A DNA stretch of 64,000 nucleotides from an uncultured bacterium (GTDB taxonomy: Bacteria; Fidelibacterota; UBA2242). The position numbers and the translations under genes are program-made. A model generated the notes under the pieces. The model was not told the origin of the DNA and made no database searches. It saw nothing but the letters and a program-made list of their open reading frames with translations. Shown here in pieces: positions 1,552 through 51,215 of the stretch. How positions within the stretch are numbered: position 1 is the stretch's first letter; each line of letters starts with the position of its first letter. The DNA lies in assembly GCA_964588795.1 (NCBI GenBank), contig CAZPQN010000010.1, forward strand, positions 1,148 through 65,147. Reading direction: 5' to 3'.

Positions 1552-1576
1552 TAATGATTTAGCAAAACCCGCGTAG

Positions 1577-1957: not shown

Positions 1958-1969
1958 ATTTGCTCCTCG

Positions 1970-11255: not shown

Positions 11256-11779
11256 GTACTCTACGCGACAATCACTGTGACTCCACCAGCCTGAGTGAGT
11301 ATGAAATATTCGCCGGCTTAAATGGCGATCAGGTCAACTCCTTCTGCAAGCTTTTTCAGGTCATCGAGTATGAACCGGGCGAGGCCATCATCCAGGAGGG
11401 CGCCATCGGCAACTCCATCCTCATTTTACTGAACGGCCAAGTGGAAATCAGTCAGGCCCTGACTCTGAAAACCGACGCTTCCGGCGTAGATAGTCGTGAA
11501 AAGAGCCTGATTAAACTCTCGGCCGGCGCCCATCCGTTCTTCGGTGAAATGAGCCTGTTCAGCGATGATGATAAACGCACGGCAACGGTCAAGGCGATCG
11601 ACAAGTGCCTGATCGGAAGGCTTGACAGACAGGATTTCTTCGATACCTGCAATCGGCATCCGGAGATTGGCAACTTAGTCATGCAAAATATCGCCCGGGT
11701 GCTCAGCCGGCGTCTGAAACAAGTCAATCAGAATGTCCTTAAACTCACCACAGCCTTCAGTTTGCTGATAGAAAGATAA
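11252..11779 (+). CDS. Stand-alone cyclic-nucleotide-binding (CAP effector-type) domain protein
   Basis: cNMP-binding phosphate-binding cassette 'FGEMSLF...RTATVKA'. Its ATG overlaps the channel's TGA (ATGA), indicating translational coupling. Confidence 0.75.
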   Translation: MSTLRDNHCDSTSLSEYEIFAGLNGDQVNSFCKLFQVIEYEPGEAIIQEGAIGNSILILLNGQVEISQALTLKTDASGVDSREKSLIKLSAGAHPFFGEMSLFSDDDKRTATVKAIDKCLIGRLDRQDFFDTCNRHPEIGNLVMQNIARVLSRRLKQVNQNVLKLTTAFSLLIER

Positions 11780-11792
11780 GCGAGGATAACAA

Positions 11793-18371: not shown

Positions 18372-21227
18372 ATGCACTGGTTAAAAAACAACAAGACCGA
18401 AGCTAGCTTAGCCCTCCTGACGCTGATCCTGAGTTTCCTGGTATACCTCGCGACAATGGCCCCGACTGTGCCGTTTTGGGACTGCGGGGAATTCATCGCC
18501 ACTTCTTATACCCTGGGTGTGCCCCACCCGCCAGGCAGTCCGTTGTACCTATTAATCGGACGCCTGTTTTCCATGCTACCGACCAATCCGAGCATTGCCT
18601 TCCGCGTCAATCTGATCTCACCCATCGTGAGCGCCCTGGCGGTCATGTTCCTGTTTCTGATAATCGGACAATTGCTGAAGAACTGGTTTGATAGCCAGAA
18701 CACGCTCGCCAAAATTGCCCGTTACGGCGGAGCTTTTATCGGGGCCATGACTTTTGCATTTACGGACAGTCACTGGTTCAATGCGGTGGAGGCGGAAGTA
18801 TATGCCTTTTCAACCTTCCTGACAGCTATCGTAGTCTGGCTGATTTTGGTTTGGGAAGAAAAGTCGGATCAACCCGGACACGAACGCTATCTGTTGCTGA
18901 TCGTCTATATCATCGGTCTGGCAATCGGCATTCATCTGCTTAATCTGCTGGCGATCTTTTTCATCGCGCTGGTGATTTATTTCAAGAAATACACCGTCAC
19001 CTCGGTGGGCTGGTTGATTGTAGATATTATCGTCGGTGTCGCCGCGATTGGTTTGATTTTCTTCTTTTTCCTGCAATTTAAAGTGCCTTTCGAACTGCAG
19101 GCGATACTAACCCTGGCCATTTTTCTGCTGGTTTATTTCCAGATCTATAAAAAAGCCGCCAAACCCCGCTTTCAGGAACATGCCCGCAATGTCCTCATGG
19201 CGATGGCGGCTTCCGGCGCCTACCTCGTCATCAACAGCGGAATTATCCGCGGTCTGCCGACGATTGCCGATACGTTCGGAATTGGGGCGGTGGCCGTGAC
19301 CATCATTGCCCTCTTAGCGGTGACCGCCTGGTTTATTTTAAAAAAGTACAACCTGTTGGCGCTCATCGCCATGGCGCTGGTTCTGATTGTCGTAGGCTAT
19401 TCTTCCTATACCATGATTTTTGTGCGGAGCAACCAGGATCCCACGATTGACGAAAACGATCCGGAGACCACTCACCAGGCGGTTGCCTACTTGGAACGCG
19501 AGCAGTATGGTCAACGCTCATTCACCGATATATTCGACCGCGCCAAATGGAAACCCGAAGCCGCCTATAAGTACAAAGGGGCCTGGGATTATTTCTGGAA
19601 GTACCAGATCAATTATATGTATATCCGTTACTTCAACTGGCAGTTCATCGGTCGCAAGGGCGACAGTGTTAATCCCTTTCAATTTATTCTGCCCCTGCCG
19701 TTCATAATCGGGCTGTACGGCATGGTGACTCACTTCGGGCGGGACAAACATAAGGCGTTAGGCGTTTTAGCCCTTTTCCTGTTTACCGGCCTGATGATTG
19801 TCCTGTATCTCAATCAGGACGATCCCCAGCCGCGTGAGCGAGACTATTCCTATGTCGGCTCCTTTTTTGCCTTTGCGATCTGGATCGGGATAGGGGTGGC
19901 GACGCTGATCAGCTACTTCAGCCAGCTGAAGAGTGTCCGCTGGCGCAAACCTTTGACCTGGCTCGCAACGATAGCGCTGGTGATTATTCTGCCAGTCAAT
20001 CTGTTGCAGGCCAATTACCGGGAGCATGACCGCACCGGCAATTTTGTCGCCTGGGACTATTCCTATAATCTCCTGCAATCCTGCGCCCAGGATGGCATCC
20101 TGTTCACCAACGGAGACAATGACACTTTTCCGCTCTGGTACCTGCAGGAAGTCGAAAAAATCCGCCAGGATGTCAAAGTTGTCAACCTCAGCCTGCTCAA
20201 CACCCCCTGGTATATCAAGCAACTCCGGAACAGCGAACCGAAAATCGCGATCGGCGACTTGTCCGATCAGATGATTGACCAGATCAATTTGGTGCGCTGG
20301 GAAAAGCGCAAAGTCAAAATCAGTCCTCCACCGGACAGCAAATTACCTCCAATGGAATGGGAGATGGAACCCACCTGGCGCTACGGACAGATGGGCGCCC
20401 TGCGTGTGCAGGACCTCATGATCATGCAGATCCTCGAGGCCAATCGCTGGAAACGTCCGGTCTATTTTGCCGTCACCGTCTCGCCGGAGAACAAACTCGG
20501 CATGGATGAGTACCTGCAGATGGAAGGGCTGACCTTCAGAATCCATCCGCAAAAGGTCCGGCGCATCAATCCCCAGAAAATCGCCGACAACATCAACAAT
20601 GTCTATCTTTTCCGCAATCTGAACAATCCTGACGTCTATTACGATGACAATATCATCCGCCTCATCGGCAATTACCGCTCAGCCTTCCTGCAACTGGCGG
20701 TTGACCGGTTGTACAGCAACGACCGCGCCGGCATGCTGGCCGCGCTCGATTCGATGTCCGCGAAAATGCCGGAAACGATTTTTCCGATTGGTAATGATGA
20801 CGTCTATCTGCAGGTCGGTCTGTTATATTTTGAAGGTGGGCGGCAAGGCTCCGCCGAACAGCCCTCGGACCTGGAAATCCGACTCGAAAGCTTGGTCAGT
20901 CAGGCGAATCAGAGCGTGAAAAACAAATTGAAGTACGCTTCCATCTATGCCCAGCACCTCAAACGATTTGACAAAGCGCAGTCCATCCTCGAGGCCCTGA
21001 ACCTGCAAAAGCCACTCGACCCCGAAATTGCTGGCTATCTGGTCAAGATCTATGAAGAGACCAAGCAATATGACAAAGCGCTGGGAATTCTGGACGCGTG
21101 GTTGGCGGTGCACCCCGATGACCAGAGTGCGACCGCGATGCGCGACCGGTACCGCACCCAACTTACACCCGCCCAGAAGGCACGGATGGATTCGCTTAGC
21201 CGGGTGCAATTTAAACCAGCGTCATAA
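18372..21227 (+). CDS. DUF2723 (TMEM260-like, GT-C fold) polytopic membrane protein with a C-terminal TPR-like domain; putative protein glycosyltransferase
   Basis: N-terminal 'FWDCGEFIATSYTLGVPHPPGSPLY' DUF2723 motif, at least 10 TM helices, and a soluble helical-repeat C-terminal region. Confidence 0.65.
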   Translation: MHWLKNNKTEASLALLTLILSFLVYLATMAPTVPFWDCGEFIATSYTLGVPHPPGSPLYLLIGRLFSMLPTNPSIAFRVNLISPIVSALAVMFLFLIIGQLLKNWFDSQNTLAKIARYGGAFIGAMTFAFTDSHWFNAVEAEVYAFSTFLTAIVVWLILVWEEKSDQPGHERYLLLIVYIIGLAIGIHLLNLLAIFFIALVIYFKKYTVTSVGWLIVDIIVGVAAIGLIFFFFLQFKVPFELQAILTLAIFLLVYFQIYKKAAKPRFQEHARNVLMAMAASGAYLVINSGIIRGLPTIADTFGIGAVAVTIIALLAVTAWFILKKYNLLALIAMALVLIVVGYSSYTMIFVRSNQDPTIDENDPETTHQAVAYLEREQYGQRSFTDIFDRAKWKPEAAYKYKGAWDYFWKYQINYMYIRYFNWQFIGRKGDSVNPFQFILPLPFIIGLYGMVTHFGRDKHKALGVLALFLFTGLMIVLYLNQDDPQPRERDYSYVGSFFAFAIWIGIGVATLISYFSQLKSVRWRKPLTWLATIALVIILPVNLLQANYREHDRTGNFVAWDYSYNLLQSCAQDGILFTNGDNDTFPLWYLQEVEKIRQDVKVVNLSLLNTPWYIKQLRNSEPKIAIGDLSDQMIDQINLVRWEKRKVKISPPPDSKLPPMEWEMEPTWRYGQMGALRVQDLMIMQILEANRWKRPVYFAVTVSPENKLGMDEYLQMEGLTFRIHPQKVRRINPQKIADNINNVYLFRNLNNPDVYYDDNIIRLIGNYRSAFLQLAVDRLYSNDRAGMLAALDSMSAKMPETIFPIGNDDVYLQVGLLYFEGGRQGSAEQPSDLEIRLESLVSQANQSVKNKLKYASIYAQHLKRFDKAQSILEALNLQKPLDPEIAGYLVKIYEETKQYDKALGILDAWLAVHPDDQSATAMRDRYRTQLTPAQKARMDSLSRVQFKPAS

Positions 21228-21236
21228 TTTATCTCC

Positions 21237-22286
21237 ATGACGGAAGCTCCGGCAGTTTCGGTCGTAATTCCCCATTTTAACGGGACGGCGATTCTGCGTG
21301 ACTGCCTGGCGTCGCTGTACGGCTCGACTCGCTTAAATTTAGAAGTCCTGCTGGTTGATAACGCTTCGACCGACGACAGCCTGGCCATGGTGCGTCGGGA
21401 ATTTCCGCAGGTCACGATTTTAAGTCTGACCCAAAACCGTGGCTTTGCCGGTGGGTGCAATGTCGGGATTCGTGCCGCCCGCGCGCCCCTGGTGCTCATC
21501 CTGAATAACGATACGATTCATCAGAACGGATGGCTGGAACTTTTGGTCGCGAAACTGCAATCAAGGGTGGAAATTGCCGCAGTTCAGCCCAAAATCCGGT
21601 CATATCAGACTCGTGCCGCTTTCGATTATTCCGGGGCGGCTGGCGGTGAAATGGACCTTTTTGCCTACCCCTTTGCCCGCGGACGCATCTTCGAGGCGCT
21701 CGAAACCGACACCGGCCAGTATGACACCTGGCCGGAGCAAATTTTCTGGGCTTCAGGCACGGCCTTTTTGGCGCGTCGTGAATTCCTGTTGGCGGTGGGG
21801 CTGTTTGATGAAACATTTTTCGCCCACATGGAAGAGATTGACCTGCAGTGGCGCTTACAGTTGATGGGTTATGAAATTGTGGTGGAGCCGAGAGCTGTCA
21901 TCTGGCATCGCAGTGGCTATACCCTGGGTGCCGAAGCGCCGCTGAAAAAATATTTGAATCATCGCAACAGCTGGTTGATGTTTCTGACCAATTATCGTCC
22001 CCTGCTGACCCTCTATTTGACACCCCTGCGTCTGGGACTGGACTATTTGGCGGTGTGTTTTTCGCTTTTACGTCGGGACTGGGGCCGCGCGGCGGGGATT
22101 TTACGCGCGCAGCTCTGGTTGGTGGGTCACGGGCCAACAATTCTCCGGCGACGAAGACAGGTCAAAGCATTGCGCCGGTGTAGCGACCGCCAGGTCAGCC
22201 GGCGTTTATTTCATGGCAGTGTGGCGCTGAGTTTTTATTTATTGAAGCGCCGTCACTGTAACGACCTGTTTTCAAACGCGGCGTAA
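21237..22286 (+). CDS. Family 2 glycosyltransferase
   Basis: 'VSVVIPHFNG...LLVDNASTDDS' GT2 (GT-A) signature and a DxD region. Lies 9 nt downstream of the DUF2723 gene. Confidence 0.8.
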   Translation: MTEAPAVSVVIPHFNGTAILRDCLASLYGSTRLNLEVLLVDNASTDDSLAMVRREFPQVTILSLTQNRGFAGGCNVGIRAARAPLVLILNNDTIHQNGWLELLVAKLQSRVEIAAVQPKIRSYQTRAAFDYSGAAGGEMDLFAYPFARGRIFEALETDTGQYDTWPEQIFWASGTAFLARREFLLAVGLFDETFFAHMEEIDLQWRLQLMGYEIVVEPRAVIWHRSGYTLGAEAPLKKYLNHRNSWLMFLTNYRPLLTLYLTPLRLGLDYLAVCFSLLRRDWGRAAGILRAQLWLVGHGPTILRRRRQVKALRRCSDRQVSRRLFHGSVALSFYLLKRRHCNDLFSNAA

Positions 22287-22288
22287 AA

Positions 22289-23146
22289 TTAAGGCGTCGC
22301 CGGGCGTTCGCTCAGGATTTTGTCGTAGACAGCTTTGTTGTCGGGATCGAGTGCCAGCAGTTTGCGTTGCTGAGCCGGTGAGCCGTGTTCCTTGATGACG
22401 AGCATAAAATCGCGAGCGTGGGCATCGAGAAAAACGCGCAGGTTGCGTTCACGGCTGTTTTCGCTAAAGGTTGCCTCGATGCAGCCCAGGGCTTTATCGA
22501 GCACCGGGGGAACTTCAGCCGTTTTTTTCTGATCGGATAAATCCACCGCCAGCCAGAAGTAATATTTGGTCATTCGGTAATTGCGCTGGCGCAGAATCTC
22601 GTCCTGAACCTGGAGGCGTTCTTTCCAGCCTTGGGGACGCTCCGACATCTGGGCGCGGGTGGCAATGTCGCGCGCTTTTTCATAAGCATTATTGCCGCCC
22701 AAAAGTTCATAGGTGTCCAGTTCGCCGGCAATCAGCATCCAGGCATAGTAATCGAGCACACTGGTCAGCGAATGGCTCATGTCTGAATGTACAACCGGAT
22801 CGTTGGGATTATAGACAAATTTGAAGGACTTTTCGAAAAAGCGCTGGTCGCCGGATTCATTGGTGATAAACATCTGAGCGGTGAAAACCCGCTCTGCTCC
22901 GGCAGTGCCGACGCTTTGGGGGAAGATGCTGATCTTAATCGGAATCTGCATGCCGTAACTGTTTTCAATCCACTGAAAGGACTCAAAATAGGCCGGGAGC
23001 AGACGCTCCAGCACTTTCAAATCCGCACGCTCCTTCTCCGGCATGCGCTCCACGGAAATTTCGGCGTTGACTTCGACGAACTGGGCGAAAGAGATGATCG
23101 GATAGCATACAATCAACAGCCAGTGCTTAAACCCGCTGCTATTCAT
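22289..23146 (-). CDS. DUF4835-like exported hypothetical protein
   Basis: Signal peptide. 'FKFVYNPNDP...VLDYYAWMLIAGELDTY...LRVFLDAHARDF' resembles the Bacteroidota DUF4835 family. Confidence 0.4.
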   Translation of the reverse strand: MNSSGFKHWLLIVCYPIISFAQFVEVNAEISVERMPEKERADLKVLERLLPAYFESFQWIENSYGMQIPIKISIFPQSVGTAGAERVFTAQMFITNESGDQRFFEKSFKFVYNPNDPVVHSDMSHSLTSVLDYYAWMLIAGELDTYELLGGNNAYEKARDIATRAQMSERPQGWKERLQVQDEILRQRNYRMTKYYFWLAVDLSDQKKTAEVPPVLDKALGCIEATFSENSRERNLRVFLDAHARDFMLVIKEHGSPAQQRKLLALDPDNKAVYDKILSERPATP

Positions 23147-23328: not shown

Positions 23329-24786
23329 ATGACCAATACGAATCAGTTACGCACATGGATTGCCCTAACCGTCCTGTTGTTAGGGGGAATGACCAGCTTC
23401 GGCGCGGGTCAGAAACGCCTGACCAAGGAACCACGTCCGGCCTGGATTGATAATCCCCAGCCCGGTTACTATATCGGTATCTCACATAAGTTCCCGGAGG
23501 AAGCCGATGCCCGGACGGATGCGCTCAACAACGCCAAGCGTCAGATCATTGAATCCCTGGGCGGGATAGTCGAAAGCGAACTGATTGACTCGATTATTGA
23601 GTCCGGTGCAACGGTAAAAACCCAGGATGCCTTTACCAACTCCCGGGTGAAGGTGGTGGCCAAAAATATCGTGGCGGTCAAGCCGGAAAGGACTTTCGTC
23701 GAGGAATATCAGGAAAACTCCGGGCGACGCGCACAGAAAAGCTATCTGGCTTTCGTAATGGTCTATTTTGACGAGGCGGCGCACCGGGAGTTTTTGCAAC
23801 AGCTGGTCGCGGAAACGGTAATGCTTGGCAATCAGCAATTTCTTGCGGCGCAAACGCAAGCAAACGCCGGGCAAATTTTTTTGGCGATTGATCAACTGCG
23901 TCAGGTCGCAAAGAATATCCAACCCCTGACCGAAATTACCGGATTGCCGGCGCCGGAAATGCGTGATATCCAAGCTTTTCAGGAGCAGGTGCGGGCGGGC
24001 ATTGAAACTATCCGTACCGGTCTCCGGATTGAGATTCGCGGAGAGCGACAAGTCACCAAATGGGGCGAGGGTCTGCCCGAGCCACTGGTGGTTATGGTGT
24101 CCTGCCAGATTGGCGAGAAACGGGTTGAGCTACCCGGACTCGCGGTTGATTTTAATGTCACTACTGGTCAGGCTATTCTGACCCCGCAGGTTAGCACCAA
24201 TGCTCAGGGAGAAGCGGTTTGTCAGGTGACTGAAGTGCGGACCAGCCAGCCACTGAAAATCGCCGCGCGGGTGCATTTTCCGGAAGGTTATGACGTATCA
24301 TCCAATAGCGCAATCTTCAATCTTTTGCCGGATAACCGGGTTGTTGTGAAAGTGACGGAGTTAAATTTGGGAAAGGTTGTGGCACTGTCTAACCTAGAAA
24401 ATGCCCTGTCCCAGGCTCTGACTGCCGCGGGCTTTACGATTTTGGAAAATAATCCCTTCGCACAGTTTGACCGTCAGCGGTTGGAAAACCTGTCACCGGC
24501 AGAGATTGGGCAGCTGGCGAAAAACAGCGGCGCCGATCTGATTTTACTGGGCAGCATCGTTGCCGACCAGCCGAGTAAAATCCAGGAAGATTTTTACTTT
24601 ATGCGGGCTAAGGGCACGCTGAAAATCTTCAATGCCCGGCGCCAGACGGTGATTGACAACTTTTTGATCGAGGATAAAAGTGCCGGCAATTCGCCGGAAA
24701 ACGCAGGCGCCAAAGCCATTGCCAAGGTAAGCGATTTGCTGGTGAAAAAAATGCGGGATTCACTGCTGGGTGGGTCGGAGCCCTGA
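23329..24786 (+). CDS. Exported protein with an N-terminal LPP20-like domain (tentative), first gene of the caspase operon
   Basis: Signal peptide from the internal Met at 23329. 'GYYIGISHKFPEEADARTDALNNAKRQIIESLGG' resembles LPP20/FlgP-type lipoprotein domains. Confidence 0.45.
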   Translation: MTNTNQLRTWIALTVLLLGGMTSFGAGQKRLTKEPRPAWIDNPQPGYYIGISHKFPEEADARTDALNNAKRQIIESLGGIVESELIDSIIESGATVKTQDAFTNSRVKVVAKNIVAVKPERTFVEEYQENSGRRAQKSYLAFVMVYFDEAAHREFLQQLVAETVMLGNQQFLAAQTQANAGQIFLAIDQLRQVAKNIQPLTEITGLPAPEMRDIQAFQEQVRAGIETIRTGLRIEIRGERQVTKWGEGLPEPLVVMVSCQIGEKRVELPGLAVDFNVTTGQAILTPQVSTNAQGEAVCQVTEVRTSQPLKIAARVHFPEGYDVSSNSAIFNLLPDNRVVVKVTELNLGKVVALSNLENALSQALTAAGFTILENNPFAQFDRQRLENLSPAEIGQLAKNSGADLILLGSIVADQPSKIQEDFYFMRAKGTLKIFNARRQTVIDNFLIEDKSAGNSPENAGAKAIAKVSDLLVKKMRDSLLGGSEP

Positions 24787-24818
24787 TCCGGATTGTCTGA
24801 TCTCACAAACAGCATGGG

Positions 24819-24868
24819 GAAAAATCCGATAGTTTTTGGTTGTAATTTAGCTGAAAAACTGATAGTTT
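24819..24868. repeat. Two copies of a ~16-nt direct repeat GAAAAA(T)C(C/T)GATAGTTT spaced ~34 nt apart, in the intergenic region upstream of the coiled-coil lipoprotein gene
   Basis: Read directly: GAAAAATCCGATAGTTT at 24819-24835 and GAAAAACTGATAGTTT at 24853-24868. Confidence 0.4.
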
Positions 24869-24965
24869 CGAACAATGGCGGCGCAATTGGAAATACGATC
24901 CCAATTCAGAACCGGCGCAGATACCGGTTCGCAACCCAAACAGGTATAACAAACAAGAGGACTTT

Positions 24966-25580
24966 ATGAAAAACAGATGGCTGATATTATCGATCGGGGT
25001 GCTGACTCTATTGAGCGGATGCTCGTCGCTAACTTTTATCCCCACCCCGCCGGCGGCGACGCTGGCAACCACTGATTACGTAAATAAGCAAATGACGACA
25101 GTAGCGGAAAGAACAACGCAGGAGCTGCTCGAAAAGACTCGTAGTATTCTGGATGAAGCATTGGCGACAGAACGCGCCCGGTTGGATGAATTAAAAAGTA
25201 CGATGGAGAGCCAGCAGAAAGATATCGCGTCCACTATGGAATTTATCAAACAGTCCAAACAGGAAATTGACCAGACGGTGACTACCATTCAGGATATTGT
25301 TGCCAAGGAGCGGAAGAAGGTTGACCTGTTTAAAAGAGAAGTTGCCGACAGTTTGGATAATCTTTGGAATGGCATAAATCAATTGCAGACGACTGACCAA
25401 AAATTGCAGGAAAATATCGCCTTGCTCGAAGCGAACATCAATAGGTTAGAGAAGGCTAACGAGCAACTGCGTCAGGATATCGCGCAGATCAATGTCCGCC
25501 TCGAGGGCATGCCCAAGGAGACGATGTTGGCCCTGCGCAAAGCCATCGAGAATTTTTATCAGCTCCAGTCGGGGAATTGA
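24966..25580 (+). CDS. Coiled-coil lipoprotein of unknown function
   Basis: Lipobox LLSGC, then about 150 aa of heptad-like Q/E/K-rich sequence. Its stop overlaps the start of the caspase gene. Confidence 0.55.
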   Translation: MKNRWLILSIGVLTLLSGCSSLTFIPTPPAATLATTDYVNKQMTTVAERTTQELLEKTRSILDEALATERARLDELKSTMESQQKDIASTMEFIKQSKQEIDQTVTTIQDIVAKERKKVDLFKREVADSLDNLWNGINQLQTTDQKLQENIALLEANINRLEKANEQLRQDIAQINVRLEGMPKETMLALRKAIENFYQLQSGN

Positions 25581-28500
25581 CTGATGCTGAGAGTGTGGAG
25601 GTTGGTATGAAGTGCCCAATTTTTTCCAAAAGTCGTTCGCGCCGGGGTCGGCTATCCCGGCTGATGGCGCTGGGTCTGCTTGTAGGTCTGATGCTCACAC
25701 TGCCGGTGCAGGGGCAGGAGGTTAGCTTTGAAACCGCCCAGACCAAACTCGCTCAACTGCTGGCCAGTCTGGGTAATTTGGATACTGAAATCCAGCAGGA
25801 AATCGAAAAGGCGCTGACCGCCGAGCTGGATCTCCGTCCCAAGGGCGAATTTGAGTCTACGGCCGAGTACGATGAACGACTTTGCCAAAATGAAACCCGG
25901 CGGCAGGAAATTGCGGCGCGCTACGAGGAACAAAAGACGGAACGCCGGGCAATATTGGACAAGGAACTGGAATTGCTGACCAGCAAAGCTTATCCCACGC
26001 CGATTCAACTGGAGCTGGGTTATTACCGGCCAGAGTTGGAGCGCTTTCCCTTTACCGTGCCCAAATACCAGAAAAAGGGCAGTTTGCTGATTCCCAAATC
26101 CATCGCCCAGCAGTTTAAGGAAGGCTTTGCCAATCTCAAACCCATTGGCTATTTTCAACTGTCACGCGACGGCGAAACCCGCCTCATCTACGTGGTGGTC
26201 GAGTTCAATGGTCAACCCTACACAGCCCGCACCGACCGGCGGATGCAGAGTATCAAGAATTTAGCGACCTTTAAAAACCATAGCCGCTCGGTCAATGCGG
26301 TGGTTTTTAATCCGGACGGAAGTTTACTGGCTACCGGCAGTGACGACAAGACGGTTAAAATCTGGGACGTGAAGAAGCAGACCCTGCTTTACAACCTGAC
26401 CGGGCATACCAAGTACGTTACGGCTTTGGCATTTCATCCCAGTGAACCGGTATTGGCCAGTGGCGGTTCGGATGGCTTGCTGATCATCTGGCAAATTGAC
26501 GGTCAGAAAATTTTGCAGAAGATCATGGTCCATCCGGAAGGCATCAAATCTCTGGCTTTCAGTCCCGACGGAAAGATCGTTGCCACCGCCGCGGCGGACT
26601 ACAAGATCTATCTCTATCAGGTAAGCGATGCGACCTGTTTGCAGACTTTGAGTGGACATACCGATGAAATCCACGCCCTGACCTTCAGCCCGGACAATCT
26701 CTGTTTGGTGAGCACCGGCTATGACCAGTCCATCCGCCTGTGGAGCGTGAAGGATGGCAGTAATATCAAAACCATTACCAAGGCGCATCCTTTATGGATT
26801 AATGCCATCGCCTATAGCCCGGATGGCGAACAAATTGCCAGTGCCGGTGATGATAAAATTGTCAAGATATGGAACGCCAAGGATCTTTCTCCGCAAAAAA
26901 CTTTCAGCGATCTGCCTGCCGGTGTCATCGCATTGGCGTTCAGCAATCCGGACGGTTTGACAATTGCTTGCGGGCTCGAAGACAACACGTTATTGTTCAA
27001 GCGGGTGGCCGATGGAACCACGCTGTTCAGCAACAAAGAACACAGTGGCACGGTGAAATCCGCCGCCTACGATGTGCAAGGGAAGCTCCTGGCGACTGCC
27101 AGCGAGGACCGCACGGTTAGGTTATGGGAAATCGTTTATGATGAAATGGCGGAGCTGGCGGGCGCCAGCGACGTGGTACGGACCATTGCCGGGGCGGCAA
27201 ACGGCCTGCCACCGAAACTGCGGGCTGAAATCAATTTCAGCGAACCCTCGGGCAACAACTTTCTGGATGCCAACGAAACCGGGCTCCTGAAAATCACCGT
27301 AATCAATAACGGGCAGGGGCCGGGTTTTGCCGTCTCGGCGGTACTGTCCGGTACTCAGAACCCGGAGCTGGATTATCCTCCGCGCACTTTGATCGGCGAT
27401 ATCAACCCCGGAGAGAGCAAGACCGTGGAAATTGCGCTTAAAGCGCGCTATAAAATGTCCGCCGATTCCATTGCCCTCAACTGTAACATCATCGAGGCCA
27501 ACGGTTTTAATCTCGATCCCATGCAGATCCAATTCGAGACTCGTCCCTATTTTGTCAACTTGGTCAATGCCGGCATCCAGGTCACTGACCAGAGCGGTAA
27601 CGGCATGATTGAGCCGGAGGAAATTGTCGAAGTAACGGTCAGGTTGCAGAATCAGGGTACCAGTGTAGCACGCGATGTACGCGCCGCTCTGCGACTGGGC
27701 GATAATGTCTTCTTTGTCGGCAAGGACACCAAAGAGCGGGTTCAGCAAACTCCGATCGGCGATTTGCCGGCGGGCGACTTTCGGGATTTGACGATCAAGG
27801 TCTACACCAACAACGTGGCGACGGCGGTTCCGGTTTTCCTGACGGTCTCGGAGTACTATCGGGAATGGGGCGTCGTCAACCTCCCGGTCGAGCTGAGTTT
27901 CAATCAGCGCTTAGCCACGATGCAGCAATTTGTGGTCAAGGGCAAGGAGGACGGCAGTAAGTATGTGACCGACGGATTCTCGATAGACGTGGAGCTGAAT
28001 ATTCCTGCCGGACAGGGCGTTAAAAATGATGCTGTCGCCCTGATCATTGCCAACCGCAAGTACCAGAACAGCGACATTCCGGAGGTTAGCTTCGCCCACC
28101 GCGATGGCGAATTTGTCAAACAATACCTGCTAAAAACTTTAGGTTTTCGGGAAGGCAATATCCTGGTCTACAATGACGCCACCCAGTCTCAATTCAAGAC
28201 CGCTCTCCAGAAATTGGCCAATACCGCCAAAGACACCGCCGAAATTTTCTTCTATTACGTCGGGCACGGGGCTCCTGATCCCGAGAGCAAACGTGGCTAT
28301 TTCGTACCTGTGGATTGCGACCCTAACTATGTCAGCGTGGGCGGCATCGCTCTGGATTACTTCTATGAACAACTCAATAATATCAAAACGGCGGCCACTA
28401 CCGTCATGATTGATGCCTGCTTCTCGGGCAGTAGCAACGAGGGCATGTTGATCAAGAACGTCAGTCCGGTCATGATCGAGATCGAAAAGGGGCACACGCT

Positions 28501-28774
28501 TTCCGATCATATCGTCGAATTCACTTCGTCCTCCGCGGATGAAGTCAGCTCCTGGTATCCCGAGAAAAAACACAGCTTGTACACCTATTACTTCCTGCGC
28601 GGCCTGCAGGGTGAAGCCGATGAAAACAAAGATCTGGTTTTGACGGTCGGCGAACTGGCAAAATATTTAGATAGTAAGGTGCCGTATGAAGCCCGGCGTC
28701 TGAACAACCGCCAGCAAACTCCCGGGGTAACACCCGACCGTGCGGACCGGGTACTTGTCAGATATGGTCAATAG
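25577..28774 (+). CDS. Exported multidomain protein: signal peptide, coiled coil, WD40 beta-propeller, 2x CARDB-like beta-sandwich, C-terminal caspase (peptidase C14)
   Basis: At least 7 WD40 repeats (e.g. 'GHT..VTALAFHP...LASGGSDG...IW'). Caspase block 'ALIIANRKYQN...FFYYVGHGAP...VMIDACFSGS' carries the His/Cys dyad. Ends with TAG. The start may be an internal Met (25607 or 25664). Confidence 0.8.
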   Translation: MTDAESVEVGMKCPIFSKSRSRRGRLSRLMALGLLVGLMLTLPVQGQEVSFETAQTKLAQLLASLGNLDTEIQQEIEKALTAELDLRPKGEFESTAEYDERLCQNETRRQEIAARYEEQKTERRAILDKELELLTSKAYPTPIQLELGYYRPELERFPFTVPKYQKKGSLLIPKSIAQQFKEGFANLKPIGYFQLSRDGETRLIYVVVEFNGQPYTARTDRRMQSIKNLATFKNHSRSVNAVVFNPDGSLLATGSDDKTVKIWDVKKQTLLYNLTGHTKYVTALAFHPSEPVLASGGSDGLLIIWQIDGQKILQKIMVHPEGIKSLAFSPDGKIVATAAADYKIYLYQVSDATCLQTLSGHTDEIHALTFSPDNLCLVSTGYDQSIRLWSVKDGSNIKTITKAHPLWINAIAYSPDGEQIASAGDDKIVKIWNAKDLSPQKTFSDLPAGVIALAFSNPDGLTIACGLEDNTLLFKRVADGTTLFSNKEHSGTVKSAAYDVQGKLLATASEDRTVRLWEIVYDEMAELAGASDVVRTIAGAANGLPPKLRAEINFSEPSGNNFLDANETGLLKITVINNGQGPGFAVSAVLSGTQNPELDYPPRTLIGDINPGESKTVEIALKARYKMSADSIALNCNIIEANGFNLDPMQIQFETRPYFVNLVNAGIQVTDQSGNGMIEPEEIVEVTVRLQNQGTSVARDVRAALRLGDNVFFVGKDTKERVQQTPIGDLPAGDFRDLTIKVYTNNVATAVPVFLTVSEYYREWGVVNLPVELSFNQRLATMQQFVVKGKEDGSKYVTDGFSIDVELNIPAGQGVKNDAVALIIANRKYQNSDIPEVSFAHRDGEFVKQYLLKTLGFREGNILVYNDATQSQFKTALQKLANTAKDTAEIFFYYVGHGAPDPESKRGYFVPVDCDPNYVSVGGIALDYFYEQLNNIKTAATTVMIDACFSGSSNEGMLIKNVSPVMIEIEKGHTLSDHIVEFTSSSADEVSSWYPEKKHSLYTYYFLRGLQGEADENKDLVLTVGELAKYLDSKVPYEARRLNNRQQTPGVTPDRADRVLVRYGQ

Positions 28775-28777
28775 CGC

Positions 28778-29665
28778 ATGGCAATGAGCGGCCAGGGCCA
28801 ATTCAAGTACGGCCTTAGGATAATTATTTGCCTGCTTGGTCTGCTTACCGCGGGTTTATTGGCCCAAAAGTCCCAGGCAATCTGGGTAGAAGTTGACACT
28901 GTCAGGGTTTTCGACAGCAATACGACACCAGCGGAAGCCCGCCACAAGACCCTGACCCTGGCGCGTGAATGTGCGATTAAAAAAGCTATTCCCGAGGAGG
29001 TGCTCACCAGTTCGGTGTTTTCGGATCTGCGCGCCGAGTCTGGTCAGCAGGCTCAGGAACAGACCGCAATCAATATTTTCGCCATTTCCACGCAGGCAGG
29101 GGTAATCACCGAGGAAAAGATCCTGATCGCCAAGCCGGAAATTCTGGAGGATCTGATCAGGTACCGGGTCCGCCTGCAAGCGCAGGTGGCACCGATCATT
29201 GGTCAGCGCAATCCGGCCCTCAAATTAGACCTGAAAATCAATAATAATGTTTTTAAAAGCGGCGACCGCTTGGTGATTACGGCAACGAGCACCCAGGAAG
29301 GCTATCTCTATCTTTTCAATTTTTTAGCCGACAATTCGGTACTGATGATGTTTCCCAACCATATTTCAATGGATAATTCCGTCAAGGCCCGTCAGCCGCT
29401 GACCATTCCCACTCTGGCGGAACAGAAACAGGGGGTGGTCTACAAGGTGCAGGCTGATCCTAAACGTACCGTCACGGCGGAAGCGATTTTCGGCGTATTT
29501 TGTACCACGCCGATTGCCGAGTTTGACCGCTTTCAAGCCCTGCAAAAAGGGCACACTATTTTTAGTGCCGGTGACGAAAGTTTTACGCGCTTCCAGCGCG
29601 GATTGGCCGAGGTGCCACTCAACCAGCGTTGCGAAACCGCCCTGCCGATTCAGATTTTCAAATGA
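28778..29665 (+). CDS. DUF4384-domain exported protein (caspase-associated)
   Basis: Signal peptide. C-terminal 'GDRLVITATSTQEGYLYLFNFLADNSVLMMFPN' matches the DUF4384 core. Lies 4 nt after the caspase gene. Confidence 0.55.
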   Translation: MAMSGQGQFKYGLRIIICLLGLLTAGLLAQKSQAIWVEVDTVRVFDSNTTPAEARHKTLTLARECAIKKAIPEEVLTSSVFSDLRAESGQQAQEQTAINIFAISTQAGVITEEKILIAKPEILEDLIRYRVRLQAQVAPIIGQRNPALKLDLKINNNVFKSGDRLVITATSTQEGYLYLFNFLADNSVLMMFPNHISMDNSVKARQPLTIPTLAEQKQGVVYKVQADPKRTVTAEAIFGVFCTTPIAEFDRFQALQKGHTIFSAGDESFTRFQRGLAEVPLNQRCETALPIQIFK

Positions 29666-32481: not shown

Positions 32482-32922
32482 CTAAACGGCTTTGGGCAAA
32501 GCGGTCAGACAGAAAACCATGATGAACAGTGCCACGGTTTCGATGATGCCGATGACCATGATATAATTGCCAAAGCCCTTGCCGGTCTCAGTCAAAGCGT
32601 CACAGGCTTTGGCCGAGGCCTTGCCCTGCATGAAAGCCGATAAACCCATGGCGAATCCGGCGAAAGCCCCTAAGAGCATCTGAGCTTTGCCGGTAGCGTC
32701 AACAATATTTGCTCCGATAATGGCGTTGCGCAGAATCATGCCGTAAATTGTCTGCGACAGGGGCGCCCCCACAAATGCGACCAGGATGAAAGGCGCGGCT
32801 TTGTTCAGGGCGTATGCTTTCTTCCAGGCTCCGATGGCAGAAAGTCCCGCCACACCGGCTCCCAGTCCCGATCCGATAGCCGCCAGGACGAGCGACAGAT
32901 TTAAATCACCTAAACCTTGCAT
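32482..32922 (-). CDS. ntpK: V/A-type ATPase proteolipid subunit K (4-TM, 16 kDa type)
   Basis: Four hydrophobic helices and the conserved ion-binding Glu in 'GIIETVALF'. Confidence 0.8.
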   Translation of the reverse strand: MQGLGDLNLSLVLAAIGSGLGAGVAGLSAIGAWKKAYALNKAAPFILVAFVGAPLSQTIYGMILRNAIIGANIVDATGKAQMLLGAFAGFAMGLSAFMQGKASAKACDALTETGKGFGNYIMVIGIIETVALFIMVFCLTALPKAV

Positions 32923-32966
32923 ATTTTTTCTCCTCAGATAATAGGCATTTAGAATTTTTCATGAAT

Positions 32967-34757
32967 TTACTCTTCGCGGAAGGGTAGATATTTTTTGCCG
33001 GTCCACTGCATGCCGAGATGACCGCTGAACTCCAACATATTCAGCCGGATGCCATGCACGATGACCGACATCAGGCACAGGATCATATTCAGACCATGTC
33101 CAAAAATCAGGATCAGGCCTGCGACTATGACTTTAACCAGACCGCCTTCCCCGCCCAGGGCCATGTTGTTGAAACTGACTTCGACCACCGAGCCGGCTAA
33201 TCCGACGGCAAATAAACGCAGGTAGGAGACAACATCCCCAAAAGAGCCAATGATGCTAAGCGGCAGGTTGCCGACCGTTGCGCCCACCCCTTTCCAAAAA
33301 TGCCCTTTCAGGTAGTTATCGAAACTGCCAATCAACAGCGCCCCGCCGCCGATCAGATAAGGCGTCACCGACGGCAGGGGGTTAGACAGCACTAAGCGCC
33401 CCGCCAGGAAGAACATGCCCCACACGACCCCGATCCAACCCACCTGCGCCAAGGCTTGCAGGGAATTGATTTTCTTCAGGCCGTTCAATAGATGGCCGAC
33501 CGTCAGATGCAGGGCGCCGATCAGGAAGGTGAAGTACATCAGAAAACGAGTAACTTCATCCGGTTTCTTACTGAAACTGTAAATCCGGTCAATGATTAAG
33601 CGGTCGAAAAGCGGTAAACGGGCAATGGTTTCCTGACCGAACCACATACCCGTGATGGCGCCCCAGACTATCAGAGCGCCGCTCAGTACGTACATTAGGA
33701 AAAAAGGCTCGCGGGCGGCTTGCCGATGTTTGCGGCGGAAGAGCAGAGTCCCTATCAAAAAGACCAGTCCATAGCCGGCGTCGCCTACCAAAATCGCGAA
33801 GAACAGGCTGAAGAAGCATAAGAACCAGAAACTGATATCGTATTCGTGATAACCCGGCAGCGTGCCCATGAAATTAAAAATAGGTTCAACCATATTCAGC
33901 CATCTTGGGCGCCGCAATAAAGTCGGGACATCGTCCGGCTCGCTGGGATCTTCGGTTATGTAGCCCCAGGCTTCCTGTTCCGCCGCCTTTTTAAATTGTT
34001 CGAGAGTATCGGTGGGGCAATATCCCTCTAAGAAGACGATGTCCTCGGCCACACCCATGCCGGCGCGCACACTGACGAAACGGTGTTGCCGCTGCAAATC
34101 AACGAGATGGCGCTTGAGAATAGGCTGATAATCCACCAACCGCAGGAGACGTTCGTCGATGCCCATAATTTCCTTTTCGGCGGCGGCGATGCGGTCACTC
34201 ACGGTCAGGAAATCTTCTGCGGGGACCGCTTCTTCCTTCAGATCAAGAAGCTCACCGTTGGCGCCGGTCAGGAGGGCAATCAGAATCCGGCCTTTTTCTT
34301 CTTTGAGGCTCAGGATCAATTTATCAGCCGGCAGGCGTTTCTGCTGGGCCTTATCAATGCTGTAGAGGCGGAGAAAGACTCCATGGGAAGCGAGTTCAGC
34401 GAGCTCGGCCTGGCAGGTTCGCCCCCACACCCGGTACCAGTTTTGTTTTTCGCGATCTTTTTCCAGCTCTCCGGCCAGTTTGGCTTTCTTTTCGCTGAGG
34501 CTCAGGATTTCACTGACCAATTGCCCCGGGTCAACTGGCTCCGGACTGGTTGCGCCGGAGGTCGTCCGGGATATATCAAGCTGGTGGAGGGCCCGTTCGA
34601 CGGCGCTAATCTGATTTTCGAGCTGGAGTAAGTTATCTCCCGCAACCGGGACGGTCGGCTTCACGTGCAGAATGCCAAGTTGCCGCAGACGCCGGAGGGC
34701 CGCATCGCGGTTGCTTGCGCTGAGGAAAACGGTCACTTTTTGCATGGCAACGATCAT
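32967..34757 (-). CDS. ntpI: V/A-type ATPase subunit I (a-subunit homolog)
   Basis: 596 aa with an N-terminal soluble coiled-coil domain and a C-terminal polytopic domain. V-ATPase 116-kDa family. Confidence 0.8.
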   Translation of the reverse strand: MIVAMQKVTVFLSASNRDAALRRLRQLGILHVKPTVPVAGDNLLQLENQISAVERALHQLDISRTTSGATSPEPVDPGQLVSEILSLSEKKAKLAGELEKDREKQNWYRVWGRTCQAELAELASHGVFLRLYSIDKAQQKRLPADKLILSLKEEKGRILIALLTGANGELLDLKEEAVPAEDFLTVSDRIAAAEKEIMGIDERLLRLVDYQPILKRHLVDLQRQHRFVSVRAGMGVAEDIVFLEGYCPTDTLEQFKKAAEQEAWGYITEDPSEPDDVPTLLRRPRWLNMVEPIFNFMGTLPGYHEYDISFWFLCFFSLFFAILVGDAGYGLVFLIGTLLFRRKHRQAAREPFFLMYVLSGALIVWGAITGMWFGQETIARLPLFDRLIIDRIYSFSKKPDEVTRFLMYFTFLIGALHLTVGHLLNGLKKINSLQALAQVGWIGVVWGMFFLAGRLVLSNPLPSVTPYLIGGGALLIGSFDNYLKGHFWKGVGATVGNLPLSIIGSFGDVVSYLRLFAVGLAGSVVEVSFNNMALGGEGGLVKVIVAGLILIFGHGLNMILCLMSVIVHGIRLNMLEFSGHLGMQWTGKKYLPFREE

Positions 34758-35365
34758 CGACTGACCATTTCCTTCCGGCTCTGGATTTTGGCTTTGGCGA
34801 TTTTGCCGCGCACTACTTCAGCGGTCATGGCATCGCCTAAGAAGATTTGGATGATACGGATGTTTTCACGGGTCTCGGGGATTTTGACTTTTTCGAACAA
34901 ATTGATGCGCTGGATGGTGACCCGCAATTCCTGGCGCAGGATTTCAGCCTGCTCCTGTAAAACCTGGATGTGAATCCGACGGGCGATCTGTTCCCGAAGA
35001 ACGATCAGAGCCCGGTCAACCCAAAGCGGGGTGGTGTAGAGATCATATTCGACATCTTCGAAATGTACATCCCGGAAAATGCGAATATCAATACCGGCAA
35101 TATTCCCCTCACCAGATAAGACTTCACTGACCTTCAGTAATGGTCGCAGGTCGAAATCTTCCGCCAGAACATCCACCCACTTGCGCAGTTCGTCGCCAGT
35201 CTGGCGCAAGGCGTTTTCAAGGGTTTCGATTTCCTGCCCGATGCGGCGGATTTCGGTGACCAGCTGGCTTTTCTTGAGCTCCAGTGTCGGTAGAAAGCGC
35301 TGGTAGCGGGACAGCGCCTCACGCTGGCTTTTGAGTTCATTCTTGGTATGCTTAATCTTGCCCAT
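34754..35365 (-). CDS. ntpD: V/A-type ATPase subunit D
   Basis: About 200-aa coiled-coil protein, 'MGKIKHTKNELKSQREALSRYQRFLPTLELKKSQL'. Confidence 0.8.
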   Translation of the reverse strand: MGKIKHTKNELKSQREALSRYQRFLPTLELKKSQLVTEIRRIGQEIETLENALRQTGDELRKWVDVLAEDFDLRPLLKVSEVLSGEGNIAGIDIRIFRDVHFEDVEYDLYTTPLWVDRALIVLREQIARRIHIQVLQEQAEILRQELRVTIQRINLFEKVKIPETRENIRIIQIFLGDAMTAEVVRGKIAKAKIQSRKEMVSR

Positions 35366-35376
35366 TTGAAGGTCAG

Positions 35377-36705
35377 TTAAGCCGGCTGAGCCTCTGATTT
35401 AGGCCAGAATTTGTTAATCAGTTCGGATTTCATACCGGTTTCTTCGGGCAGGAAACAGGTGGCCAGGATCTGCCAGCCGCGGTCGAGCGCGGCTTCGAGT
35501 GGGATATTGACCTTCAGATCCATCATGGAAGATTCGAACAGGGCGCCGTATTTCAAGAGCTTGCGGTCCCAGTCGCTCATGCGGAAACCCATGGCGCGTT
35601 TTTCCTCGGTTTCCTTGAACTGGGCGTAGAGCTGGATCATGCCATCCATAATCGCCCGATGATCTTCGCGGGTGCTTTTATTGACCTGTTGCTTGAGACG
35701 GCTGAGCGAACCAAATGGTTCGATGCGGCCGTTGCGCAGGTAGAATTGTCCTTCGGTGATATAGCCGGTGTTGTCCGGCACGGGATGGGTCACATCATCG
35801 CCCGGCATGGTGGTGACCGCCAGAACCGTTACCGAACCGGCTTCCTCGAAGTCCACGGCTTTTTCATAACGTGCCGCCAGCTGACTGTAAAGGTCGCCCG
35901 GGTAGCCGCGATTCGACGGAACCTGCTCCATGGTGATGGCGATTTCCTTCAGGGCGTCGGCGAAGTTGGTCATATCGGTCAGCAAAACCAGCACATCACG
36001 CCCCTTGAGTGCGAAGCGTTCCGCGACAGCCAAACTGAGGTCCGGCACCATCAAGCCTTCCACGATCGGATCGGAGGCGGTGTGCATAAAGAAGATCGAG
36101 CGACTGAGCGCGCCGCCTTCCTCCAGAGTATTTTTGAAAAACATATACTGGTCGTATTTCAGACCGATGCCCCCTAAAATGATCATGTCCACTTCCGCCT
36201 GCAGGGCGATGCGCGCCAGTAATTCATTATAGGGTTCGCCGGAAACGGAGAAAATGGGTAGCTTCTGGGAGATGACCAGCGAGTTGAAAACGTCAATCAT
36301 GGGAATATTGGTGCGGACCATGCGCCGTGGAATAATTCTTTTGGCGGGATTGACCGAAGGACCGGCGACCTGAATCAGGTTTTCGGTGAGGGCAGGTCCT
36401 TTGTCACGCGGGACGCCACTGCCATTGAAGATCCGACCTAACATGTCATCGCAGAAGGTTACCTGCATCGGGTGGCCGAGGAAGCGCACCTCGTCATTGG
36501 TCGCGATGCCCTGGCTTCCGGCAAAAACCTGCAGGGAGACGATGTCGTTATCCAGCTTGATGACCTGGGCTAACGACTTCCCCCGCTGAGTGGCAATTTC
36601 CGCCAATTCCTCGTAGTTCACGTCGGAGGCCTTGACGGTGATAACATTCCCGGTGACGCTCAGTATTTTATTGTAGACTTTTTGCATTTTGCGTTTGGCC
36701 CTCAA
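35377..36705 (-). CDS. ntpB: V/A-type ATPase subunit B (non-catalytic)
   Basis: AtpB-like nucleotide-binding domain. The start may be the internal Met at 36687. Confidence 0.85.
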
Positions 36706-49433: not shown

Positions 49434-49916
49434 AAGGCGCTTCCGAAAAATTTACCCCTTCAGTTGCATAATCACCTTGAATATATTCGCCGCTCCTCAA
49501 AAAATCAAGCAAAAAAGTTGATTCCGGCCATATTTTGATTACTAAATCCTTCTGAAAGATTGCATCTTACAGGACGCATTTAAAGCAATCCATTAAAATT
49601 TAATAAACGTGATTCATGAAAATTAGGCCAGATATTGAGGTGTTCTGTTACCTAACCCCATCATCTTGAAAAAACCACTCGTCGCCAATCAGATACCTGC
49701 AATTCAACGCCAGCCGGAATGCAAACTCAAAGATATGATGGAACGGGAGAAAAGCAGATTTTCCCCGTTTTCATATCAATAATGTTTTGAAAGCTGCAAT
49801 AAAATTTGTAAAATTTGATACCGTTTTGTGAAGAAAATAATCCATAGCGCCTCTCAGGCAAAAGCATCGCGACCGTTACCATTACCCTTGATAATCAGAA
49901 ATTGTAGGGGATATTA

Positions 49917-51119: not shown

Positions 51120-51186
51120 ATCGCAGATATAAATGGCCATTTTCACCTGTTTTTTTTAAAAAAGTGGCTTCCGACGGAAGAAAGTC

Positions 51187-51215
51187 TTGACATTTAAAAA
51201 ATTGTCACTTAACAT
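51187..51215 (+). promoter_or_regulatory. Sigma-70-like promoter candidate (TTGACA, 17 nt spacer, TAACAT) for the small repeat-protein gene
   Basis: Read directly, in an AT-rich spacer about 40 nt upstream of a strong RBS (AAAGGAGGA). The organism's consensus is unknown, so this is tentative. Confidence 0.3.

Follow-up and report, generated by a model that had tools for sequence, protein, structure and literature searches.

A conserved three-gene cassette of exported proteins around a CARDB-caspase peptidase in Marinimicrobia-type bacteria

Bacterial caspase homologs are mostly discussed as cytoplasmic death or defense effectors, and the exported ones have no known job. Orthocaspases and metacaspases have basic P1 specificity, and secreted cysteine peptidases of clan CD with Ig-like accessory domains are represented by the gingipains and PorU (family C25) and by clostripain (C11). 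Among prokaryotic caspase homologs, WD40 is the commonest accessory domain and FGE-sulfatase the fifth, and as early as 2012 N-terminal transmembrane or signal segments had been pointed out, with extracellular roles as a possibility (PMC3501461). For the orthocaspases of cyanobacteria, the ranks are first for WD40, third for FGE-sulfatase and fifth for DUF4384 (PMC8283722). DUF4384 also occurs fused to trypsin/pseudo-caspase proteins (PMC6426788) and to kinases (10.1101/2025.01.12.632604), and in one group of Csx30, the substrate of Craspase, it makes up the C-terminal domain (bioRxiv 10.1101/2022.08.17.504292). Sensors of the FGE/CLec type that are varied by diversity-generating retroelements (DGRs) are known, together with peptidases, from NTPase-centered conflict systems (PMC7159879, PMC10907252). 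Here, we analyze a locus in a 64,000-nucleotide stretch of DNA from an uncultured bacterium of the Fidelibacterota (UBA2242; contig CAZPQN010000010.1, positions 1,148 to 65,147; henceforth termed the window), in which four plus-strand open reading frames (ORFs), g1 to g4, cover positions 23329-29665 and include the gene of an exported caspase-type protease, g3.

An earlier note on this DNA had treated these four consecutive same-strand genes as one unit. The ORFs were confirmed; the unit was not, and our main outcome is that it shrinks from four genes to three, g2-g3-g4, a conserved exported cassette within a very large family. The full order of TMEM260-like gene, family 2 glycosyltransferase (GT2), divergent DUF4835 gene, g1, g2, g3 and g4 is kept in three metagenome-assembled genomes (MAGs; loci L007, L008 and L009), with identities of 51-53% for g1, 47-53% for g2, 67% for g3 and 60-62% for g4. 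In other genomes, however, the bond with g1 is broken. In the window and in L001, L003, L005 and L007-L009, g1 invariably has the divergent PorD-like DUF4835 gene and the TMEM260-like/GT2 block at its side, yet L003 and L005 have this backbone and g1 without a caspase, and in L001 8 kb of other genes part g1 from a divergent WD40-CARDB protein that lacks g2. Conversely, g2-g3-g4 stands in different flanks in L012, L013 and L041, and g2-g3 in other contexts in L052 and L055, all five without g1 within 6 kb upstream. Since g1 is found without the caspase and the cassette without g1, we take g2-g3-g4 to be the conserved unit. The existence of this module is near certain, and the specific roles within it are much less so. 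g1 is probably a resident of the neighboring PorD-like/glycosyltransferase block and at most an optional partner; its distribution suggests that it belongs to an outer-membrane or type IX secretion system (T9SS)-related backbone and not to the caspase cassette. The adjacency of g1 and g2 is uninformative here because the synteny of the upstream backbone is equally conserved, and an optional link to g1 is made possible by shared LPP20-like domains and by LPP20 lipoproteins that lie beside the module in six loci.

For the central gene, g3, Pfam confirms the WD40, CARDB and peptidase C14 parts that had been read from its 1065-aa translation. WD40 (PF00400) matches in six stretches with an E-value of 2e-64, along with many beta-propeller models. 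CARDB (PF07705) reaches 25.6 bits against a cutoff of 22.7 in two stretches when residues 536-815 are scanned alone, and the middle segment also matches DUF11 (26.3 bits). Peptidase_C14 (PF00656) scores 68.7 bits against a cutoff of 21.4 (E 7.9e-19, residues 820-1052). The dyad of His897 and Cys948 is present and invariant in a 25-sequence family alignment, and the histidine aligns with the SGHG motif of metacaspase-9. By dyad and Pfam match, g3 is a predicted catalytically intact C14 (caspase-fold) cysteine peptidase. A search of the PDB with the single g3 C14 domain gave no match, and one with a family profile gave only marginal matches to metacaspase-9 and MALT1 (E ~2e-3). Pfam matches nothing in the first ~225 residues; the region of residues 48-225 recurs in 24 CARDB-caspase proteins of several phyla, placed either N-terminal to WD40 or between WD40 and CARDB, and appears from this distribution to be an undescribed mobile module. 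Two assignments of g3 were rejected. The best NCBIfam caspase model for the C14 domain is the EACC1-associated type (NF047832), at 81 bits against a cutoff of 140, and the neighbors are g2, g4 and housekeeping genes. A role as T9SS cargo or sortase does not fit either, as Pfam finds no C-terminal Por_Secre_tail sorting domain in g1-g4 and the family is common in phyla without T9SS.

The two partners of g3 in the cassette are a lipoprotein and a two-domain protein. The description of g2 as a coiled-coil lipoprotein is borne out by its lipobox LLSG/C (Cys codon at 25020), which orthologs of 47-53% identity keep as L[AS]GC/SSLTFIPTPP; the coiled coil was read from the translation, and searches of g2 in Pfam and NCBIfam gave coiled-coil noise only. 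A g2-like gene lies directly 5' of the caspase in 11 loci, all Marinimicrobia-type, and precedes every sampled Marinimicrobia caspase with the order helical region-WD40-CARDB-C14; a heuristic finds the g2-type N-terminal hydrophobic segment in 11/11. For g4, DUF4384 (PF14326) passes the Pfam gathering score, as the earlier note had it, with 44.6 bits against a cutoff of 27. The protein has neither a Pfam LPP20 match nor a lipobox and starts with an ordinary signal peptide. With deep alignments, its N-terminal domain matches that of g1 (hhalign 90.7%, E 1.3e-6, 40 columns); compared directly with LPP20-type lipoproteins it is not significant even at that depth (2.6%), so that its LPP20-like status derives only from the link to the g1 N-domain. 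g4 is probably an LPP20-like domain joined to DUF4384. PDB searches with the g1 and g4 profiles returned nothing meaningful, and an exact look-up of g4 in a contig index found no entry. All orthologs of g4 (14 clusters) and homologs of g1 (26 clusters) come from Candidatus Neomarinimicrobia/Marinimicrobia MAGs, which assigns the chromosome of the window to this lineage.

The neighbor g1 is a four-domain protein, with three helices between its LPP20-like and Ig-like domains. No Pfam family passes, and LPP20 (PF02169) is unmatched even at E <= 10 with either the full length or the N-terminal 200 aa. Shallow, ortholog-only hhalign comparisons of the g1 and g4 N-domains with each other and of either with the LPP20-type cluster were not significant; later, deeper alignments differ. 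With a 50-sequence alignment, the g1 N-domain aligns with the LPP20-type cluster at 96% (E 4e-9, 112 columns), and one protein in that cluster exceeds the Pfam cutoff for LPP20 (33.2 vs 25.9). A profile search of 1.84 billion representatives places g1 in a broad family of ~450-550-aa proteins of the same layout, whose remote members (n=51) match LPP20 (8), Big_1 (3), CsgG (2) and DUF4384 (2) in Pfam. Bridging proteins match both the g1 N-domain profile and the LPP20-type lipoprotein profile in the same N-terminal region, and two remote relatives of ~550 aa, P0204 and P0252, fuse a g1-type LPP20-like N-domain to a DUF4384 domain (E ~1e-10 to the g4 profile; best Pfam value 4e-26). Because of the deep-alignment comparison and the bridging homologs, the label "LPP20-like" is correct as domain homology. 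What the earlier note called LPP20-like in g1 is therefore upheld by profile-profile comparison and bridging homologs and not by Pfam, which among the four products supports WD40, CARDB, Peptidase_C14 and DUF4384 but not LPP20. The signal peptides of g1 and its orthologs are type-I-like, end in AFAQ, ANAQ or VKAQ and lack a lipobox Cys.

Table 1. Positions of the genes, domains and catalytic residues of the locus in the window, and of the DGR region in locus L023 (own numbering).
Feature	Position	Strand	Remarks
TMEM260-like/GT2/DUF4835 backbone	18372-23146		DUF4835 gene divergently transcribed
g1	23329-24786	+	485 aa, exported; neighbor, probably not an obligate part of the module
g1 LPP20-like domain	23410-23778	+	
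g1 Ig-like domain	24022-24330	+	
g1 TolB-N/PelC-like domain	24331-24768	+	
g2	24966-25580	+	204-aa coiled-coil lipoprotein
g3	25577-28774	+	1065 aa from TTG 25577; exported multidomain caspase-type protease
g3 signal peptide	25607-25717	+	MKCPIFSKSRSRRGRLSRLMALGLLVGLMLTLPVQGQ; read directly; plain signal peptides with a final AQ in orthologs
g3 N-terminal helical region and domain (residues 48-225)	25718-26251	+	no Pfam match
g3 WD40 beta-propeller	26252-27196	+	Pfam WD40
g3 tandem CARDB (Ig-like) domains	27197-27976	+	Pfam CARDB
g3 Peptidase_C14 domain	28034-28732	+	Pfam PF00656
g3 catalytic His897	28265-28267	+	motif YYVGHG
g3 catalytic Cys948	28418-28420	+	motif DACFSG
g4	28778-29665	+	295 aa, exported two-domain protein
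g4 signal peptide	28778-28879	+	
g4 alpha/beta N-domain, probably LPP20-like	28880-29203	+	
g4 DUF4384 beta-sandwich	29204-29662	+	
L023 DGR region	1045-3700		VR 2043-2166, TR 2600-2723

The family to which g3 belongs is far larger than its lineage. The C-terminal 530 residues of g3, comprising two CARDB domains and C14, find matches in over 1107 protein clusters (E < 1e-10) that are 40-45% identical to the query across 98% of its length; precomputed annotations list CARDB for most members, and some also match Peptidase_C13 models. The commonest form is ~564 aa long and consists of a signal peptide and the CARDB-CARDB-C14 core. N-terminal add-ons include WD40, thioredoxin/AhpC, CsgG plus LpoB, LysM, SH3_3, MORN and EF-hand, and several of these (thioredoxin/AhpC, CsgG plus LpoB, LysM, SH3_3) are typical of the envelope; P0146, P0156, P0092 and P0106 are examples with CsgG/LpoB or thioredoxin/AhpC fused N-terminal to the CARDB-caspase core. 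A scan of GTDB with one genome per species yielded at least 584 loci, of which 79 were kept and 77 non-redundant ones used for partner counts. These loci were retrieved via the caspase alone, their ORFs called, and their neighbors clustered and compared by alignment-built profiles. The 79 loci span Neomarinimicrobiota, Fidelibacterota, Bacteroidota, Nitrospirota, Nitrospinota, Syntrophales and other Desulfobacterota, Cloacimonadota, Gemmatimonadota, Ignavibacteriota, Elusimicrobia, Deferribacterales and Gammaproteobacteria. Nearly all hosts of the family are diderms, with Flexithrix dorotheae DSM 6795 (L061) and Rapidithrix thailandica JCM 23209 (L068) as cultured carriers among the Bacteroidota.

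Partner genes recur across this sample. A separate DUF4384 gene is present in 35/77 loci (17 directly adjacent on the same strand), in 16/29 where at least 4 kb is available on both sides, and across roughly nine or more phyla; all 37 of the 37 neighbor proteins in the DUF4384 cluster match the Pfam family at E <= 1e-3. This linkage of caspase and DUF4384 is far beyond chance. An exported FGE-sulfatase (C-type-lectin-fold) gene occurs in 31/77 loci, and one or the other of the two partners in 44/77. Rarer neighbors are reverse transcriptases (9/77), g2-like lipoproteins (8/77) and LPP20 lipoproteins (6/77), the last flanking caspase-DUF4384 pairs in phyla other than that of the window. The recurring co-occurrence of caspase, DUF4384 and LPP20 claimed beforehand is supported by these counts. 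FGE genes accompany 1/12 WD40-caspases as opposed to 30/65 others (Fisher p = 0.02, a test that ignores phylogeny), and DUF4384 is equally frequent with and without WD40 (6/12 vs 29/65). As WD40 and FGE are near-exclusive while DUF4384 is shared by both groups, the data suggest that a WD40 propeller in cis and a lectin-fold protein in trans are alternative ligand-binding elements.

Export appears to be a property of the whole gene set. N-terminal hydrophobic segments were found in 76/85 caspases, 37/38 DUF4384 proteins, 33/36 FGE proteins and 6/6 LPP20 proteins, compared with 1/9 reverse transcriptases and 1/6 GT2 proteins as cytoplasmic controls. In the window, g1-g4 all begin with a signal-peptide-like segment by direct reading and a hydrophobicity heuristic, in agreement with the signal peptides or lipoboxes reported for all four.

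Related loci add a connection to DGRs. In Syntrophales and Nitrospirota, the typical order is DUF4384, FGE-sulfatase, bAvd, (HRDC), reverse transcriptase and CARDB-caspase, and Pfam confirms FGE-sulfatase (1.4e-51), RVT_1, bAvd and HRDC in the DGR loci. In six loci (L022, L023, L027, L028, L050, L057), the last 120-150 nt of the FGE gene, the variable repeat (VR), have a second copy, the template repeat (TR), 0.4-1.7 kb downstream. Mismatches between VR and TR fall almost all at TR adenines, with 15/15 in L023 and 21/22 in L028. This adenine specificity is the signature of a DGR that is predicted to be active or recently active.

Set against described systems, the module shares parts with several. 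Like orthocaspases and metacaspases (PMC3501461, PMC8283722, PMC7475262), it has a C14 fold with a His-Cys dyad, and WD40, FGE-sulfatase and DUF4384 are among the top five accessory domains of those proteins; unlike them, the g3 family has as its core a distinct signal peptide-two CARDB-C14 subfamily, DUF4384 (and, in relatives, FGE-sulfatase) resides in separate exported proteins instead of being fused, and the cassette in the window adds a dedicated coiled-coil lipoprotein. Related loci resemble the DGR antigen-sensor conflict systems (PMC7159879, PMC10907252) in pairing a DGR-hypervariable FGE/CLec protein with a caspase-type peptidase, a combination in keeping with their sensor-plus-protease logic. 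Those systems, however, are built on cytoplasmic NTPases (MoxR-vWA, STAND) and adaptor domains, whereas the g2-g4-type module has neither, all its parts are exported, and the copy in the window lacks DGR and FGE. The type III-E CRISPR Craspase (Csx29 plus Csx30) likewise joins a clan CD caspase-like protease to a partner that carries DUF4384 in one Csx30 group, but it is cytoplasmic, RNA-guided and CHAT-based; there are no Cas genes here, and only DUF4384 is common to both. By analogy, Craspase hints that caspase-like proteases may have DUF4384 proteins as partners or substrates. Outer-membrane lipoproteins of the LPP20/FlgP type align with the N-domain of g1, whose C-domain resembles TolB-N and PelC of the TolB-N/PelC/CsgG-like periplasmic domains; unlike LPP20/FlgP lipoproteins, g1 and g4 have ordinary signal peptides and no Pfam LPP20 match, and g1 has four domains. 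Gingipains, PorU and clostripain are also extracytoplasmic caspase-fold cysteine peptidases with Ig-like accessory domains, but they belong to C25 and C11 and not C14, the T9SS C-terminal domain is missing here, and no sequence similarity was detected.

The literature searched holds no account of an exported CARDB-CARDB-C14 subfamily, of an operon-level pairing of CARDB-caspases with a separate LPP20-like/DUF4384 protein, of an NTPase-free exported version with a DGR, or of the Marinimicrobia g2 lipoprotein, and nothing in it ties LPP20 to caspases or Marinimicrobia to metacaspases; the sole paper found on CARDB together with Peptidase_C14 concerns corals. The system is uncharacterized, as the earlier note proposed, although its novelty was overstated there, since exported caspase homologs and their accessory domains had already been catalogued (PMC3501461, PMC8283722). 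The evidence supports reading the family as a putative extracytoplasmic caspase-type protease module that is uncharacterized.

For the cassette itself, we favor a membrane-tethered, extracytoplasmic, ligand-directed protease module. The g2 lipoprotein would tether g3 to a membrane, its coiled coil pairing with the helical region at the start of g3. In the periplasm or on the cell surface, the WD40 propeller would bind a protein ligand together with the CARDB domains, and the C14 domain would cleave either this ligand or g4. g4 itself may be a non-catalytic subunit that recruits the target, or else a regulated substrate or scaffold. The WD40 propeller in cis would here fill the ligand-recognition role that a trans FGE-sulfatase protein may have elsewhere. 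From the DGR link in relatives, the ligands would be variable and probably foreign, and this link favors envelope surveillance or defense, or surface remodeling, over bulk digestion. Taken as a whole package, mechanism included, we hold this reading with belief and doubt in about equal measure. Several points weigh against it. The roles given to g2 and g4 are purely inferential, and the localization rests on the reading of signal peptides and the heuristic. FGE-sulfatase, reverse transcriptase and LPP20-type lipoprotein are absent from the whole window, which makes the DGR argument for this locus one of homology of context only. The exclusivity of WD40 and FGE is confounded by phylogeny, and ~40-45% of the adequately flanked caspase loci have neither DUF4384 nor FGE genes nearby. 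PADLOC-DB v2 matches no defense system to g1-g4, the scan returning coiled-coil noise for g2, a WD40 cross-match and a weak generic caspase match of 28.9 bits; the suggestion of a possible defense system was accordingly too strong. A bolder extension is that the CARDB-caspase, an LPP20-like/DUF4384 partner and a ligand-binding element may form an NTPase-independent extracytoplasmic surveillance system, in which a variable receptor captures foreign (phage or competitor) proteins, periplasmic or at the surface, and directs or triggers caspase cleavage. The ligand-binding element would be a WD40 propeller here and, in other loci, a lectin-fold protein that is sometimes DGR-hypervariable. Such a system would loosely parallel lectin-protease-macroglobulin cascades, and we consider it quite unlikely.

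Other explanations differ in how many genes they include and in what the protease would cleave. All four genes could be co-transcribed as one operon with the LPP20-like g1 as an integral subunit of an envelope protease, a possibility we rate as unlikely. The common order in the window and L007-L009 (51-67% identity), the LPP20-like N-domain shared by g1 and g4, the fusion of this domain to DUF4384 in P0204 and P0252, the LPP20 lipoproteins at caspase-DUF4384 pairs in six loci of other phyla, and the absence of a detected terminator from the 179-nt gap between g1 and g2 all speak for it. That same gap contrasts with the tight junctions inside the cassette, and the conserved g1-g2 adjacency is matched by that of the backbone; g1 stays beside the DUF4835 gene where the caspase is missing (L003, L005) or where 8 kb of other genes precede a divergent WD40-CARDB protein (L001), and g2-g3(-g4) lacks g1 within 6 kb upstream in L012, L013, L041, L052 and L055. 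Scarcely credible is a role in the cytoplasm as a classical death or abortive-infection effector of the caspase type, like those of EACC1-associated or NTPase-coupled conflict systems. The best NCBIfam match of the C14 domain does carry the EACC1-associated name, and such systems typically feature WD40-caspase fusions (PMC3501461, PMC7159879), but that match falls short of its cutoff (81 against 140), export signals are present on all components, the locus has no NTPase, EACC1, MoxR, vWA or STAND gene, and PADLOC finds no matching system.

The export signal of g3 would also suit a nutritional exoprotease that digests environmental proteins for uptake, with WD40, CARDB and DUF4384 binding the substrate, and CARDB/Ig-like domains are common in secreted hydrolases. 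Extracellular protein degradation by bacterial metacaspases has also been speculated upon (PMC4933709). Against this stands the lack in g1-g4 of a T9SS C-terminal sorting domain or any other outer-membrane secretion signal, which makes a periplasmic or membrane-tethered position more likely. C14 peptidases are, moreover, specific endopeptidases, a dedicated and conserved non-catalytic partner goes with the family, as do DGR-diversified receptors, and no transporter or peptidase genes are co-localized; we find the exoprotease improbable. Hardly better placed is a housekeeping protease for the maturation or processing of one specific envelope protein, possibly g4, comparable to the PorU/legumain-type clan CD sortases and transpeptidases. 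A fixed partner gene and a membrane tether would fit such a role, as would the Peptidase_C13 matches of some family members and the PorD-like T9SS gene near the cassette in the window genome. The family is nevertheless patchy even within Marinimicrobia, with the backbone standing without the cassette in L003 and L005, and it is abundant in phyla without T9SS (Nitrospirota, Syntrophales), while tandem paralogs and the DGR association fit an accessory, fast-evolving function.

Whichever role applies, a compact and testable gene set is now defined, consisting of a CARDB-caspase, a DUF4384 partner and a lectin-fold protein or WD40 propeller, and hundreds of species from diderm phyla carry it. DUF4384 can now be placed concretely, beside an exported protease as its partner, and some copies of the family are linked to an exported receptor under targeted hypermutation. 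If the surveillance interpretation is true, an envelope-located, NTPase-free branch would be added to the prokaryotic sensor-plus-protease systems; if it is false, the family would still be among the largest uncharacterized groups of periplasmic cysteine peptidases.

At the nucleotide level, the junctions had been described as all overlapping or 4 nt. Instead, a 179-nt gap (24787-24965) separates g1 from g2 and a 3-nt spacer g3 from g4, and the 4-nt overlap of g2 and g3 depends on the TTG start at 25577. The ATG at 25607, which leaves a 26-nt gap comparable to the 27-82 nt in relatives, matches the N-termini of nine orthologs in the alignment and is probably the true start of g3. An alternative longer reading of g1 (531 aa from ATG 23191) has an extension that contains a promoter-like site, and g1 orthologs start at the signal peptide. 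Scans for promoters and terminators, the latter finding none in the g1-g2 spacer, gave background-level results, and so did folding of this spacer. Housekeeping genes flank the locus: RecG, DUF1844, a TMEM260-like glycosyltransferase, GT2 and the divergent DUF4835 gene upstream, and RarA/MgsA, a beta-CASP nuclease and a V-type ATPase operon downstream. The DUF4835 gene is PorD-like by NCBIfam NF052317, at 73 bits and under the cutoff of 170. g4 abuts the convergent RarA gene, and the V-type ATPase operon lies at 32482-36705 on the minus strand (subunits c, I, D and further ORFs); in L005, where the cassette is absent, this operon adjoins g1.

Further observations concern the surroundings of the cassette and of its relatives. 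A small fifth gene, lipoprotein-like and encoding 124-140 aa, follows the DUF4384 gene at L007:10928-11338, L008:10874-11296 and L009:10936-11310; it has no Pfam or NCBIfam match and does not occur in the window. In L007, the module is closely followed by a gene for CsgG plus an outer-membrane protein beta-barrel (11582-12751). Two CARDB-caspase paralogs, in tandem or a few kb apart and often differing in their N-terminal add-ons, occur in L019, L020, L029, L038, L045, L057, L075, L078, L079, L084 and L088. Between the FGE-sulfatase and caspase genes, an IS200-like Y1 transposase (Y1_Tnp, REP-associated type) is found in L025, L036, L039, L056, L072 and L082, and DUF559 endonuclease-like genes in L037, L044, L049, L053 and L088, these insertions being mainly in Syntrophales and Nitrospirota loci. 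In the window itself, positions 48001-52000 have a GC content of 0.465-0.484 compared with ~0.52-0.55 elsewhere and may be a foreign or otherwise atypical segment.

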